NCBI GenBank assembly: GCA_040007375.1
Contig: JBDTVD010000003.1
Coordinates: forward strand, 1-36,990
DNA length: 36,990 nt
Source of the DNA: Bacteroidota bacterium
GTDB taxonomy: Bacteria > Bacteroidota > Bacteroidia > AKYH767-A > OLB10
Reading direction: 5' to 3'
Shown piece after piece: positions 21,225 to 36,762 of the stretch. Positions within the stretch are counted from its first letter, which is position 1; the number at the start of each line of letters is the position of its first letter. The notes under the pieces are model-generated. The model did not search any database and was not told where the DNA came from. It saw only the letters and a list, made by a program, of their open reading frames with translations. The translations under genes were made by a program, and so were the position numbers.

Positions 21225-21300
21225 AATTCTAAATTAGAAATTCTAAATTACAGGTAGTACTATTTCATTTATAATTTATAATTTATAATTTCTAATTTCT
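21225..21300. repeat. Two inverted heptamer tracts (AATTCTA/AATTAGA and AATTTAT/AATTTCT) between convergent genes, possible bidirectional terminator
   Basis: 21231-21250 is the reverse complement of 21279-21298 at 19/20 positions, with the palindrome TAGTACTA at 21255-21262. Confidence 0.8.
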
Positions 21301-25650: not shown

Positions 25651-25704
25651 CTACTCTTTTAATTCAAAATTCTATCACAAATAAATTTATAACTCGTTCA
25701 TCAT
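25651..25704 (-). pseudogene. Degenerate duplicate of the lptB 3' end
   Basis: About 43/56 identity by hand alignment to 26209-26264, with exact blocks ttaattcaaaattct (15 nt) and gttcatcat (9 nt). Ends in NFELKE* versus lptB NFELRK*. Confidence 0.8.
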
Positions 25705-25736: not shown

Positions 25737-26204
25737 TTATTGACAAATAAATCTGAAAACTGTCATTGGTCTGGGTTCATCCTCATATATATATTTATCC
25801 ACTAAATCTGAATACATATTTTCCGGAGGCTTTCGGTATTGCTCATAGATTTTAATGCTATAGAACTTTACCTCTGTTCCTGATGTACATTTGTTAAGAA
25901 CCTGAATATAAGAGTCAGGTAATTTACTTCCGGTTACATGAAGTATTGTGTCGACACTATTTGAAGCATCATGAATAGAGACCTCATAGGACACAATCCT
26001 TACTGTATCTTTTCTTAAATTTTTACCAGAACGATATTTGACGGATAACTCCTTAACCATAAAGACAGGGAAGTCTGGGTGACTATGAGGATTTCTTGGT
26101 AAAAATATTATATCTGGAAGAGGGATATTATCAGTTTTAGGGGACTCCTGAGCTGATGAAGCTTTAAAAAGAAATATAAATACGATTGCCAGGAATCGGT
26201 TCAT
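25737..26204 (-). CDS. Hypothetical secreted protein, possibly GldM/PorM C-terminal-domain-like
   Basis: Signal peptide. The pattern PLPD...RIVSYEVSI...VTGSKL...LNKC.SG.EVKFYSIK recalls the last GldM domain (recognition only). Confidence 0.6.
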   Translation of the reverse strand: MNRFLAIVFIFLFKASSAQESPKTDNIPLPDIIFLPRNPHSHPDFPVFMVKELSVKYRSGKNLRKDTVRIVSYEVSIHDASNSVDTILHVTGSKLPDSYIQVLNKCTSGTEVKFYSIKIYEQYRKPPENMYSDLVDKYIYEDEPRPMTVFRFICQ

Positions 26205-26208
26205 TCAA

Positions 26209-26934
26209 TTACTTTCTTAATTCAAAATTCTGTCCGAGATAAACTTTACGTACCTGTTCATCATCGGCCAGCTCCTGTGCTGTTCCTTCTTTTAAAATTT
26301 TTCCTTCAAATAAAAGATAAGCACGATCGGTTATTAATAATGTTTCATGCACGTTGTGATCGGTAATTAATATACCAATGTTTTTTTCTTTCAAACGAAA
26401 TACAATAGACTGAATATCTTCCACTGCAATTGGATCGACTCCAGCAAATGGTTCATCAAGCAAAATAAATTTAGGATTAACAGCAAGTGCGCGCGCAATT
26501 TCCGTACGTCTTCTCTCACCACCTGATAATAAATCACCACGGCTTTTACGGATGCGTTGTAATCCGAATTCACTTAATAAACTTTCCAGCGTTGTATCCT
26601 GTTCTGCTTTACTCTGTGCAGTCATTTCAAGAACTGCTTTTATATTATCCTCAACAGTAAGTTTTCTAAAAACAGATGCTTCCTGAGCAAGATAACCAAT
26701 ACCACGTTGTGCACGTTTATACATTGGAAGTGATGTGATCTCTTCATTATCCAGAAATATTCTTCCTTCATTAGGTTTGATCAATCCAACTGTCATGTAA
26801 AAAGTAGTTGTTTTACCAGCACCATTTGGTCCAAGCAATCCAACAATTTCTCCCTGCTTTACATTAATGGAAACATTGTCCACTACTGTGCGGCCTTTAT
26901 ATCTTTTAACTAAATTATCAGATCTTAATAGCAT
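26209..26934 (-). CDS. lptB: LPS export ABC transporter ATP-binding protein
   Basis: [38 protein letters not shown] and ITDHNV. Confidence 0.97.
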
Positions 26935-26935
26935 C

Positions 26936-26970
26936 TACGAATACGAATCTGTACGAATTTACGAATGAAT
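26936..26970. repeat. TACGAA(T) tandem tract immediately upstream of lptB
   Basis: Four TACGAA cores within about 30 bp, 1 nt from the lptB start codon. Confidence 0.75.
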
Positions 26971-26990
26971 TATTTCCTGAGAGAAATTAA

Positions 26991-27054
26991 TTATTAATTA
27001 TTCATTTTTCATTATTAATTAAAATACAAGTTGCAGGGTTGCTCTGAATCCGAA
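26991..27054 (-). repeat. Direct-repeat copy of the DUF5686 gene 3' end (36 bp) plus four heptamers
   Basis: 27019-27054 matches 27165-27200 at 34/36. Heptamer tract 26991-27018 parallels 27137-27164. Offset is 146 bp. Confidence 0.93.
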
Positions 27055-27136
27055 ACAATCGAATGAATAATTAAAAATTGAATACATCTAAATTAATAAG
27101 TAAGGACGAATGGTTAATATTTAAAAACAAATTTAA

Positions 27137-27164
27137 TTCTTAATTCTTAATTATTAATTCTTCA
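27137..27164 (-). repeat. Heptamer tract (TTCTTAA)2 TTATTAA TTCTTCA abutting the stop codon
   Basis: Four 7-bp units directly adjacent to the stop at 27165. Confidence 0.85.
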
Positions 27165-29675
27165 TTAAAACACAAGTTGCAGGCTTGCTCTGAATCCGAA
27201 CTGTGTTGGCACCGTTGCTTTTTCTCCAAACCGTTCTTTATATAATATTTTGTAGGGTTCATCTATATAAGTTAACCTCCAGATAAAATCAACACGCAGC
27301 ACCTTCAATATATTTTCCACTCCTGCACTTACTTCTGTATATGGTTTTGTTAAAGATGAAAACGCATTTGGGTTGGTTAATATTTCACGGTTAGCATTAC
27401 TCAGACTTCCACTTATTGCTTTAATACCCACAATTTCTCTCCATTTCAACTTGCGCATCAGTGGAACTTTATCAAAGAAGAAACCATCGAAGTGATGTGT
27501 TGCAAATACGCTGACATAATAATCACTTACAAATTCAAAATAGTTCATCATGTTGAATGCTGCATAATCATAAAAATAACTTTCATTTCCCGGATGTACT
27601 TCCAGCAATGGATAGGGAATTGTTCCCCAGATTCTTCCTGCCTGAACAACATAATAGGTATAACCAAATGGTTTGATTTTAATCTGGTCGTCAATTTTGA
27701 TAGTGACTTTATGATAATCAAAATCACTTTTCAGAAAATCTTTTATTCCTGCAACATAATTAACCTGCAATGTTGGATATGCACTTCCAATACTGATCCT
27801 GTCCGATCTTCCGGTAACAAATTTTTCACGATAGAGAAAACGGGTATATAAGGAAACCTCTGTGGAACTGATAGTGTTTTTAATTGCAGTTTTTTCATCA
27901 TTGGTGTAATACGAATAATTCAAACTGCCCAATGGATCAAAATCAGTATGTGTAAGAGTAATTTTATTGGAGAAACCTGGAAGCCATTCAATTTCATACC
28001 ATGCTTTCTGTTGCTCCATGTGTGTGAGTTTATCAGCCGGAGATCGACGGAATAAACTTGTTAATATATTATCATCCTGAAATGCATTATCACTTTGACC
28101 TAATTGCTGCACATCATTTTTATATCCTGCACCGGCAAACTGTCGCGGCTTTTTAGAAAGCATATATTTTATTCCGCCACCATATTTAAATTCTTCATCC
28201 TTTGTACCATAAGCAAGATAACTGCTCAGTTGCAATCGTGTGCTGAAATTATCACTTGTTCGTCCGCCAAAACGAAAACGAGCACCTTCCACTGCATTAA
28301 AACTAAAGAAGGTATAATAAGGTCCAAGTTCAAATTTTCCAATCTCTTTGTATCCTGTAAAAAATAAAGTAATGATATCAACATAACTTTTAAAAGCAGG
28401 CAATGTTTTAATAGTATCTACCATGTGATAGATTTTCTGTTCGCGTTCATTGAGACTATCATGTCGTGAATCTTTCCAGAAATCAACTGTTCGGTTTAAC
28501 GCATCATCAACCACCACTATATTTTCTGATCCATCAAAAATAGCATCGCTTATAGGTTGATTAAAAATAAATCCTTTGTATGATGTAGATTTTCTGCCAA
28601 TGAAACCCATTCCATCTTCCTTAGCAGCAAAATCAATTACAAGCATATCCTTGTTCTGCATCCATTGCTTACCATCAACATAGGTATATTCCTGCACAAT
28701 GGCCATGTCGTCAATCCAGTTGATATTTGCATCCTGTGCAATACGCATCTGTATTTTTTTTACAGCCCAGGTAGTATCGTTCACCCAGAAATCACCAGTG
28801 AAAGTAAGCTCCTGCGGACGTCGTGGTTTGAATTTTAATTTATAGCACCACTGATTGTCAATTGTAGTGCTGTCGATGAGATAATAACGATAATATAATA
28901 AACCAAGATCACTGATCGGACTTACGAAAGCTTTATTAAATATATCGATATAATTCTGATATATATTAACGCGTTGATACATGTCGCCAAGAAACTGTGT
29001 AACAGAAGCATTTTCCAATCCGGAAATTTTACTGGCTTTAATAATTTCTTTTTTATTTTTCGGATTGTTGCGGAAATAAAAATCAGAAAGTGTTTCTGAA
29101 ATAAAGAATGGAAGAAAAGGTTTGCTGTTTGTTTCTGTGCTGTCAACGTTATCCCAGATAAATGCAAATGGCTTTAATAATTTTTTGCCTTTGAATTTCT
29201 CACTGATGTTGGTAAGATCAAATTCTACTTTATTATATACTTCATATTGATACGACTGCAAATTGGAAGGATCATTTTCATCTTTATGTTTAATAATATT
29301 CCTTACTATAATATTTGCAGGATTTTCACCTGCTTTTATTTCAACTTCATGCAGATCAGACTGACTTGATTTCAGGGAGAAGTTAATTGTTTGAGCTTGT
29401 CCTTTTCTTATCCGGAGAGCAACTGTTTTGTATCCGATGAGTGTACATATTAAACTGTCAGATGGCGTTGAAGTGATGATGCGGTAATTACCATCCATAT
29501 CAGTATTGGTTCCGGCCTGCATTCCTTTCATCACAACAGTTGCAAAAGGAATCGGTTCATTGGTAAGTTCGTCAGTTACCTTTCCACTGATATTGGTTAC
29601 CTGCGAAAATCCGGTTAGTGTAAGTAAACAAAGCAAAAGCAGAGGAAGGATCCTGTATTGTAAAAGATGTTGCAT
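27165..29675 (-). CDS. DUF5686-type outer-membrane protein with N-terminal carboxypeptidase-like regulatory domain
   Basis: ISGKVTD..TNEPIPFATV, GTNTDMDGNY, YQYEVYNK, SPIS..YYRY, NAVEGAR.R.GGRT, GVENILK and terminal Phe. Confidence 0.85.
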   Translation of the reverse strand: MQHLLQYRILPLLLLCLLTLTGFSQVTNISGKVTDELTNEPIPFATVVMKGMQAGTNTDMDGNYRIITSTPSDSLICTLIGYKTVALRIRKGQAQTINFSLKSSQSDLHEVEIKAGENPANIIVRNIIKHKDENDPSNLQSYQYEVYNKVEFDLTNISEKFKGKKLLKPFAFIWDNVDSTETNSKPFLPFFISETLSDFYFRNNPKNKKEIIKASKISGLENASVTQFLGDMYQRVNIYQNYIDIFNKAFVSPISDLGLLYYRYYLIDSTTIDNQWCYKLKFKPRRPQELTFTGDFWVNDTTWAVKKIQMRIAQDANINWIDDMAIVQEYTYVDGKQWMQNKDMLVIDFAAKEDGMGFIGRKSTSYKGFIFNQPISDAIFDGSENIVVVDDALNRTVDFWKDSRHDSLNEREQKIYHMVDTIKTLPAFKSYVDIITLFFTGYKEIGKFELGPYYTFFSFNAVEGARFRFGGRTSDNFSTRLQLSSYLAYGTKDEEFKYGGGIKYMLSKKPRQFAGAGYKNDVQQLGQSDNAFQDDNILTSLFRRSPADKLTHMEQQKAWYEIEWLPGFSNKITLTHTDFDPLGSLNYSYYTNDEKTAIKNTISSTEVSLYTRFLYREKFVTGRSDRISIGSAYPTLQVNYVAGIKDFLKSDFDYHKVTIKIDDQIKIKPFGYTYYVVQAGRIWGTIPYPLLEVHPGNESYFYDYAAFNMMNYFEFVSDYYVSVFATHHFDGFFFDKVPLMRKLKWREIVGIKAISGSLSNANREILTNPNAFSSLTKPYTEVSAGVENILKVLRVDFIWRLTYIDEPYKILYKERFGEKATVPTQFGFRASLQLVF

Positions 29676-30962: not shown

Positions 30963-30970
30963 TTATATAT

Positions 30971-31005
30971 AATTTTGAATTTATAATTTTGAATTTATAA
31001 TTCTT
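30971..31005 (-). repeat. Heptamer tract AATTTTG/AATTTAT x2 plus AATTCTT abutting the kdsD stop
   Basis: Five 7-bp units directly adjacent to the stop at 31006. Confidence 0.85.
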
Positions 31006-36713: not shown

Positions 36714-36762
36714 TAAATCGTAAATCGTACTTCGTAAATCGTACTTCGTAAATCGTACCTCA
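36714..36762 (-). repeat. Heptamer tract TAAATCG/TACTTCG x7
   Basis: TAAATCG TAAATCG TACTTCG TAAATCG TACTTCG TAAATCG TACCTCA, 3 nt from the stop at 36766. Confidence 0.92.

Follow-up and report, generated by a model that had tools for sequence, protein, structure and literature searches.

The term 'C-terminal displacement' is often used for the orphan 3' fragments found at cdiA, rhs and T6SS effector loci. At such loci, part of a gene's 3' region persists as a remnant behind the intact gene, in the same orientation; for cdiA and effector genes these orphans have been explained by incoming DNA that pairs with the conserved part of the gene and is joined illegitimately at its far end (PMC6336857). 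Homology-facilitated illegitimate recombination (HFIR) has one homologous and one illegitimate end (PMC3240628). Such an event would yield an intact gene, then foreign DNA, then a remnant of the resident end. In integrative elements, direct repeats that regenerate the target 3' end (attL and attR) flank the insert. Long simple sequence repeats of period 7 (LSSR, cyanobacterial STRR and TAACTGA repeats) are tandem heptamers of intergenic DNA, and many of them adjoin a start or stop codon. Heptamers are reported as the commonest class, with slippage as the proposed source (PMC4679880, citing Mrazek 2007).

A locus in the genome of a soil bacterium of the phylum Bacteroidota shares features with all of these systems. 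It lies in a window (the whole stretch of DNA analysed) of 36,990 nt, and consists of an intact DUF5686 gene with an orphan copy of that gene's end downstream of it, in the same orientation. Unlike the cdiA, rhs and T6SS orphans, it carries neither toxin/immunity cargo nor a polymorphic C-terminus: the orphan piece measures 36 nt and codes for an almost identical peptide, the inserted DNA amounts to 110 nt of spacer, and the gene is of a housekeeping type. The order of its parts would fit HFIR, a process defined by transformation or conjugation experiments, whereas the DUF5686 case is inferred from sequence alone. It differs from attL/attR in lacking an integrase, an element-sized insert and a fixed att core, the repeats in this genome ranging from 36 to 246 nt. 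Finally, the heptamer tracts of the genome differ from LSSR, STRR and TAACTGA repeats in having many unit sequences, with 570 tracts in 3.7 Mb.

Anatomy of the DUF5686 locus

The features of the locus, in the direction of transcription, are as follows.

27165..29675, minus strand, intact DUF5686 gene (836 aa)
27165..27200, minus strand, E1, the live 3' end of the gene (11 codons and stop, FGFRASLQLVF)
27130..27164, minus strand, T1, heptamer tract starting at the live stop codon (TRF 27133-27166, period 7, 4.9 copies)
27085..27129, minus strand, unique portion of the insert M, devoid of any ORF
27061..27084, minus strand, T', an inverted tract belonging to this heptamer family (inverted repeats I5 and I6)
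27019..27087, minus strand, ATG-initiated 22-codon ORF (MYSIFNYSFDCFGFRATLQLVF, then stop), which includes E2 by happenstance; an in-frame stop directly precedes the ATG
27019..27054, minus strand, E2, the orphan gene-end copy (FGFRATLQLVF and stop)
26984..27018, minus strand, T2, heptamer tract following E2 (TRF 26986-27021, period 7, 5.1 copies)
26935..26983, minus strand, D, the spacer before lptB, with a TACGAAT-type tract at 26942-26966

Pfam recognises a CarbopepD_reg_2 and a DUF5686 domain in the product of the DUF5686 gene (E = 2.1e-79). The gene has orthologues in 40 of the 41 genomes searched (own genome counted), and is a housekeeping-type outer-membrane protein gene. Sequence matches in the PDB are confined to the N-terminal CarboxypepD_reg-like domain. 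A terminal Phe preceded by alternating hydrophobic residues defines the BAM signal, and the protein ends with F, L, L, A and F at positions -1, -3, -5, -7 and -9; a conserved terminal aromatic residue and alternating hydrophobics in the last strand, the features of a beta-signal, are thus both present in the E1 peptide. The same ending is found in same-genus orthologues, and F is the last residue in 106 of the 109 loci whose gene ends were compared. The duplicated peptide is therefore the conserved C-terminal strand with terminal Phe that a sequence-only reading of this DNA had taken it to be.

The same reading had described the 3' end as duplicated 146 bp downstream, and this description was confirmed. 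E2 matches E1 at 34 of 36 nt, lies 146 nt downstream on the same strand, and differs from it by one synonymous and one non-synonymous (Ser-to-Thr) change; its homology to the gene begins abruptly at 27054. With the heptamer tract included, a repeat search gave an ungapped direct repeat of 71 nt (26984-27054 versus 27130-27200, 86% identity, no indels), which gapped alignment lengthens weakly, by about 25 nt. For 2709 called genes, the terminal 30 nt were compared with the gene's own downstream 600 nt. At least 28 of 30 positions matched in two genes only, namely the DUF5686 gene and a doubtful 85-codon ORF, while the opposite-strand control reached a maximum of 22/30; a chance origin of the E1/E2 match is excluded on these grounds.

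The copies are separated by T1 and by the insert M, 75 nt that are not homologous to the flanks. Its unique 45 nt have no significant second copy in the assembly (88% complete) and no homology to the spacer before lptB. Under a tandem unit of 146 nt, M would need a homologous partner of 75 nt; it matches the sequence in that place at 22 of 75 positions (shuffle mean 23.6; gapped local score, P = 0.065), and a plain tandem duplication of a 146-nt unit was rejected.

Both stops are followed by a heptamer tract, as described, and both tracts are period-7 simple sequence repeats of at least three intergenic tandem copies, as found by TRF. They are not special to the site: the genome has 570 tracts of this kind in many different unit sequences, 534 of them outside called ORFs, and many begin at stop codons. 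In phase, T1 and T2 agree at 27 of 35 positions. The nearest matches of T1, at 88-97% identity, are at other loci, and each of the two tracts is nearer to tracts elsewhere than to the other, so they cannot be used as a clock. The duplicated coding end has these tracts as its surroundings but is not accounted for by them. The inverted tract T' is likewise real: 27062-27079 pairs with 26989-27006 (18 nt, 94%) and 27061-27079 with 27142-27160 (19 nt, 89%). It is, however, an ordinary heptamer tract that matches many genomic tracts on the opposite strand, and its membership in a genome-wide class lends no support to the proposed role as the end of an element. Inverted tract pairs occur 16 times elsewhere, and a similar inverted-tract module is present on contig C417.

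Comparison with related loci

The duplication is absent from all 108 related loci and unique to this genome. Since all close relatives carry Ser at the variable position of E1, Ser is the ancestral residue. Of 109 loci, 20 have Thr there; among the first 30 loci, its three carriers are orthologues of 50-53% identity. A search of 185,579 species genomes with an exact degenerate pattern for GFRATLQLVF gave no hits, and a relaxed pattern gave ten matches, two of them same-genus genes (both Ser) and eight due to chance. Among close relatives, no functional allele with Thr was found.

DNA identity to the nearest relatives is about 81%. Identity profiles of the gene against three relatives (G001, L040 and L041) gave no signal of an imported block, the background of about 81% being too distant for this purpose. 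In a metagenome scan, the closest among the best 80 of 275 relatives was 88% identical in protein, and none was of the same species (the gene ends of these 80 were all read by script and ten by eye). No donor-type or recipient-type strain was found among the relatives searched. The relatives' spacers could be aligned neither with T1 and M nor with T2 and D. Spacers at the DUF5686-lptB locus are not alignable even among congeners, which indicates fast turnover.

Gene-end relics elsewhere in the genome

The downstream neighbour of the DUF5686 gene, syntenic in relatives, is itself followed by inserted DNA and by a relic of its own end.

26209..26934, minus strand, lptB-like ABC ATPase gene (Pfam ABC_tran)
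25737..26204, minus strand, orf155, encoding a 155-aa predicted secreted protein, the cargo inserted after lptB in this genome only
25652..25704, minus strand, relic of the 3' end of lptB, decayed (56 nt at 80% identity, with 3 gaps and 2 stops)

Among 110 loci searched, orf155 matched the window's own locus only. In the same-genus genome G001, lptB is directly followed by a homologue of orf114, which is also present at the loci of four other relatives. The lptB/orf155 case lies 230 nt from the DUF5686 locus. A second case, on contig C182, consists of a glycosyltransferase gene followed by a cargo gene, Fic-like to judge from a motif, and by a relic; in genome G002 that glycosyltransferase gene is directly followed by the next gene, with no Fic-like gene between. 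At these two loci, the relics flank genes that are absent from the same place in relatives, that is, foreign DNA lies between the copies.

In the genome as a whole, copies of gene 3' ends were found on the same strand in downstream intergenic DNA in ten cases, against two upstream and three on the opposite strand, and E2 looks like one of about a dozen such leftovers in a repeat-rich genome. Comparison of relics with live ends gave synonymous and non-synonymous codon changes of 3:0 (C32), 8:1 (C182), 7:5 (C459), 1:1 (C405) and 2:0 with an additional stop-to-stop change (C87). Pooled, these five young relics, a set picked after seeing the data, have 21 of 28 changes synonymous, where decay in place would give a fraction of 0.38 (p = 8e-5); at C182 the count is eight of nine (p = 0.003), and all nine loci together have 29 of 62 (p = 0.10 against 0.38). 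By the counts of the young relics, some of them at least were once functional alleles of another lineage.

Relative to the stop codon, the repeats end at 0 (C182), +12 (C32) and +24 nt (C405) in the three clearer cases and at -1 (lptB) and +2 (C461) in decayed relics; against these five cargo loci, the DUF5686 locus stands at +35 nt, and this only if T1 is counted as part of its repeat. Repeats that end at or near the stop fit a limit of homology between strains, because spacers here turn over fast. At C405 and C459, the check for cargo met with a lack either of a close orthologue or of a conserved neighbour in the flanking 1.5 kb. The anchor gene of C32 has many paralogues. The genome also contains 100 local direct-repeat pairs within 1.5 kb, many of which are heptamer tracts and short modules, and one plain 117-nt tandem duplication of a gene end (C286, codon changes 0:3, 2 gaps).

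Proposed origin of the orphan gene end

E2 is best read as a non-functional copy of the DUF5686 3' end that was displaced by one-sided recombination with DNA of a related strain. We give this origin about an even chance; its support comes by analogy with other loci of the genome, and the process has a precedent in the orphan cdiA and effector remnants. The incoming DNA would have come from a closely related strain and carried the end of the same gene with its own spacer (T1 and the 75-nt M). On one side it would have been joined by homologous recombination inside the gene, and on the other by an illegitimate join just upstream of the last 11 codons of the resident gene. The gene would have kept an intact end, E1, while E2 and T2, the resident end and the tract belonging to it, would have been pushed 146 nt downstream, where it would now be drifting. 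An intact gene with a partial, same-strand copy of its own end, the abrupt boundary at 27054 and the unique 75 nt between the copies are consistent with this origin. Against it, the cargo is only 110 nt of spacer, and the two differences, one synonymous and one not, fit neutral decay equally well (in these codons, synonymous changes make up 23% of all single changes). The earlier suggestion that one end came from another strain's allele thus draws nothing from the locus itself, where the changes fit neutrality and no close relative carries Thr, and gains indirectly from the mostly synonymous relics with cargo elsewhere.

The main rival to import is a local origin, which we regard as possible but clearly the less probable: the gene end and its tract would have been duplicated in place, by slippage or illegitimate recombination in a hyper-repetitive spacer, the DNA between would later have been overwritten by tract turnover, and E2 would be decaying neutrally. 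The abundance of local direct-repeat pairs, the tandem duplication at C286, the unalignable spacers among congeners and the neutral-looking pair of changes all agree with it, and a possible microhomology is offered by the ATTCGTA-type tract ahead of lptB, to which the opening 9 nt of E are similar. It has to account, however, for 75 nt without homology to the 146-nt unit beside an unconstrained E2 that is still 94% identical, and so needs an additional ad hoc replacement step; the 71 nt without indels are also unlike C286. Quite unlikely, by comparison, is a scar left by a MITE-like hairpin element or by an integrative element with site-specific insertion; E1 and E2 would then represent either attL and attR or a long duplication of the target, and the element would end in the inverted tracts. 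Direct repeats that include the gene 3' end do flank the insert, E2 and the insert lie between inverted tracts (18-19 nt, complementary at 89-94%), and the module on C417 is similar. This reading is weakly refuted by the lack of any ORF in the 75 nt or of an integrase in or beside the insert (the neighbours are the ABC ATPase and DUF5686 genes), by the internal 45 nt, which have no other clear copy in the 88% complete assembly, by a fold no better than that of shuffles (z = +0.39), and by the other inverted tract pairs, 14 of which (of 16) have enough flank and show no flanking direct repeat of at least 10 nt beyond control. A target duplication of 36 nt is atypical of MITEs, which have a multi-copy interior and short target duplications, while the flanking repeat here is 36-71 nt. 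The mobile hairpin was rejected on the same absence of a second insert copy and of direct repeats at the tract pairs, and the minimal or internally deleted element with inverted tract ends, as first proposed, found no support.

An artefact of assembly from mixed strains is very improbable, even if the genome is a MAG broken into 467 contigs and 88% complete, the supporting contig has a depth of about 4, and at k = 21 some tract words are common to other loci. Both copies are spanned by a 421-nt Logan contig of run X1 (k = 31, depth 3.9) that covers 26838-27258 with no differences and no gaps; X1 is possibly the window's source sample, so that the assembler is independent and the data not necessarily so. 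Within 26838-27258 no word of at least 17 nt is repeated, none is common to the two copies, and no 31-mer recurs elsewhere in the assembly; moreover, a false join inside the tract would still leave E2 preceded by non-gene DNA. Another X1 contig joins 26966 to 27142, but its shorter side is 26 letters of tract, and it was set aside as unreliable. Runs X2 and X3 gave near-identical pieces of the gene body only, and X2, X3 and X8 have no contig across 26870-27258, an absence of cover that is uninformative. Least credible of all is a function for E2, either as the end of the 22-codon ORF (27087-27019), giving a free peptide with the barrel C-terminal strand, or as an RNA signal with the inverted tracts. 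The ATG-initiated frame is present and the inverted tracts could pair in alternative ways, but E2 is absent from all 108 related loci and the peptide, judged by eye, has no signal sequence. An RNA element was rejected: the insert region has no fold signal against shuffles, no Rfam match at E up to 1 and no terminator-like site, and has two promoter-like sites against 4.3 expected.

By itself the DUF5686 locus, a dead copy of 36 nt with no sign of function, matters little. It is conceivable, though we think it improbable, that stop-abutting tracts are landing sites of a lineage-specific insertion process and not passive microsatellites; such a process would put foreign DNA at or just after the stop of conserved genes and regenerate the gene end, and if so the DUF5686 locus would be its minimal or empty product. 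The heavy load of heptamer tracts abutting stop codons is a second feature of the lineage worth describing. Together with the cases at lptB/orf155 and C182, E2 belongs to a set of relics that record the insertion of DNA beside conserved genes in a soil Bacteroidota genome, and in some of them differences confined to synonymous sites still mark a second allele. Once strain-resolved genomes are at hand, one-sided recombination events in uncultured bacteria could be counted and dated by means of such relics.

Structure of the duplicated DUF5686 gene end

The 3' end of the DUF5686 gene is repeated within the 230-nt spacer separating this gene from lptB. A repeat search returned an ungapped direct repeat of 71 nt, 86% identical and with its copies spaced 146 nt apart; its coding core matches at 34 of 36 positions, the live end (E1) encoding FGFRASLQLVF* and the orphan copy (E2) FGFRATLQLVF*. 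Features of the locus (window positions) are as follows:

27165-29675, minus: DUF5686 gene, 836 aa, CarbopepD_reg_2 and DUF5686 domains
27200-27165, minus: E1, last 11 codons and stop of the DUF5686 gene
27164-27130, minus: T1, heptamer tract after E1
27129-27055, minus: M, 75 nt, with T' near its end
27084-27061, minus: T', tract of the T1/T2 heptamer family in inverted orientation
27054-27019, minus: E2, second copy of the DUF5686 gene end
27018-26984, minus: T2, heptamer tract after E2
final 49 nt before the lptB start codon, minus: contains a TACGAAT-type tract
26209-26934, minus: lptB-like ABC ATPase gene, co-directional neighbour of the DUF5686 gene
25737-26204: orf155, 155-aa predicted secreted ORF between lptB and its relic
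25652-25704: relic of the lptB 3' end beyond orf155, a 56-nt match at 80% identity that contains gaps and stop codons

A 22-codon ATG ORF (MYSIFNYSFDCFGFRATLQLVF*; 27019-27087, minus strand), immediately preceded by a stop codon, enters E2; it is probably a coincidence.

When the final 30 nt of each of the 2709 called genes were compared with the gene's own 600 nt downstream, at least 28 of 30 matches were reached only by the DUF5686 gene and a doubtful 85-codon ORF, the opposite-strand control maximum being 22/30. Since the genome is a fragmented MAG (467 contigs, 88% completeness), the locus was checked for assembly artefacts. A 421-nt Logan contig (k = 31, depth ~4) from sequencing run X1 spans 26838-27258 without differences or gaps, which upholds the duplication described by the sequence-only reading as real; X1 is perhaps the source sample, so the assembly is independent but the data need not be. 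The spacer was covered by the X1 contig, runs X2, X3 and X8 giving no cover there. No word of at least 17 nt is repeated inside 26838-27258, whose 31-mers are all absent from the rest of the assembly; a graph chimera between E1 and E2 is therefore impossible. A false join within a tract would still leave non-gene DNA before E2.

Heptamer tracts

The 276-nt region of the locus has 85 matches within its own genome, nearly all of them to tracts. TRF identified 837 period-7 arrays, far commoner than arrays of every other period, and these merge into 570 tracts of at least three copies, built from many different units. This extreme load characterises the whole genome and is not peculiar to the DUF5686 site. 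By crude ORF calling, 534 of the 570 lie outside ORFs; 187 of the 534 tract-to-3'-end distances (about a third) fall between -5 and +9 nt, compared with 54 of 360 tract-to-5'-end distances, so that a tract directly after the stop codon is the rule in this genome. Further period-7 examples in the window are found at 21267-21298, 30968-31002 and 36714-36758, and contigs of the assembly often terminate at tracts. T1 and T2 match at 27 of 35 positions and each has closer relatives (88-97%) at other loci; hence their likeness neither proves that the tract was in the duplicated unit nor can be used as a clock.

In other species of the genus, the DUF5686-lptB spacer also contains tracts, with unrelated units. 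At the relatives' loci L039/L040, L041, L042 and L037, heptamer tracts unrelated in sequence lie directly 3' of the DUF5686 stop codon, and at L042 two inverted tracts form a hairpin there. Thus, tract position is conserved and tract sequence is not. One study describes intergenic heptamer repeats as abundant in other bacteria, among them a few Bacteroidetes (PMC4679880). Elsewhere in the genome (contigs C21 4576-4935, C424 118-526, C158 2984-3351 and C29 15200-15509), tracts alternate with conserved intergenic hairpin-like modules of 35-55 nt in 2-4 repeats, which look like REP-like units amplified jointly with the tracts.

Relatives and gene-end relics

The order DUF5686-lptB is conserved, and 109 loci were compared, of which 79 came from metagenomes, 29 from related genomes and one from the window itself. 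A downstream copy of the final 36 nt is present at the window's locus alone; the next-best locus reached 23/36, with a control maximum of 21. The final residue is F in 106 of the 109, and the varied position is Ser in 75 and Thr in 20; the three Thr loci among the first 30 are all 50-53% identical orthologues. Ser, encoded AGY, is found in both same-genus genomes and also at three metagenome loci that are close relatives. As all close relatives have Ser, the C in E2 is the derived state, and the question of which allele is ancestral, raised from the sequence, is settled for Ser. Among 185,579 species genomes scanned, none matched GFRATLQLVF, and a relaxed pattern recovered the two same-genus genes, both with Ser. 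At synonymous sites E1 and E2 resemble each other far more closely than either resembles any relative; the event is therefore recent and lineage-specific.

When the final 90 nt of each gene were searched for in the DNA around it, ten same-strand copies turned up in downstream intergenic DNA, versus two upstream and three in opposite orientation. For the converse, gene starts with a copy upstream of them, there were six matches versus one. Several of these relics (displaced copies of gene 3' ends) flank one inserted gene each, the clearest being lptB/orf155, adjoining the DUF5686 site. Present in the window's own locus, orf155 was found in 0/109 other loci searched. G001, a same-genus genome, has a convergent homologue of another ORF, orf114, directly after lptB, and orf114 homologues also occur in four other relatives' loci. 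A glycosyltransferase gene on contig C182 has 99 nt of its end repeated beyond a gene that we take, by a motif, to be Fic-like; in the related genome G002 the next gene directly follows the glycosyltransferase gene.

Gene-3'-end direct repeats of 36-246 nt flank single inserted genes on C32 (13503-13748 and 17160-17404), C182 (2327-2425 and 3766-3863), C405, C459 and C461. Their cargo includes a 1074-aa secreted protein, the Fic-like protein, a 387-aa secreted protein and, named by eye, a T9SS-tail-like and a receiver-domain-like protein. A second short case with the layout of the DUF5686 site is found at C87 11417-11678 (L132): the final 24 nt of a 637-aa gene, a tract and 30 unique nt are copied 178 nt downstream, with an inverted tract 7 nt before the copy, at which the contig terminates. 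The coding differences are all synonymous, the stop codon being replaced by another.

Origin of the orphan copy

Codon changes between relic and live end (synonymous:non-synonymous)
C32, 3:0
C182, 8:1
C459, 7:5
C405, 1:1
C87, 2:0, plus stop-to-stop
C461, 6:17
lptB, 1:5
C286, 0:3, plain tandem duplication
DUF5686 site, 1:1

Insertion may proceed by recombination that is one-sided: the incoming DNA would pair homologously within the conserved gene, and its other end, past the cargo, would be joined illegitimately. Orphan cdiA and effector remnants are likewise ascribed to pairing in the gene and illegitimate joining in PMC6336857, and the same explanation would apply to the relics of this genome. 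The DUF5686 site has the anatomy of the relic class, its cargo being merely 110 nt of spacer. The proposal that one end came from another strain's allele is plausible by analogy only; the two E1/E2 differences, from which it was drawn, are non-diagnostic, fitting an imported allele or neutral decay alike. Import from a related-strain allele has about an even chance of being correct. Local duplication followed by spacer turnover would explain the same two differences by decay, and we consider it possible, though less likely; a plain tandem duplication of a 146-nt unit was rejected, M matching its required partner at 22/75 positions (shuffle mean 23.6; gapped P = 0.065).

The scar of an element, an artefact and a functional role are improbable even when taken jointly. 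The suggested minimal or internally deleted mobile element found no support: an ORF is lacking, the internal 45 nt have no significant match elsewhere in the genome, and among 16 inverted tract pairs found elsewhere, none of the 14 with flanks had flanking direct repeats. By the RNA and terminator tests applied, the site is neither a structured RNA nor a terminator. Under import and local duplication alike, E2 is most likely dead DNA, use of the 22-codon ORF being unsupported.

For the relics as a class, the expectation for in-place decay was estimated at 0.38 synonymous. Across all nine loci 29 of 62 changes are synonymous (p = 0.10); C32, C182, C459, C405 and C87, a subset picked after seeing the data, give 21/28 (p = 8e-5), and C182 alone p = 0.003. 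Differences between the repeat copies of C32 and C182 are almost all synonymous. From these codon patterns we conclude that some of the relics, at least, were once functional alleles of another lineage.
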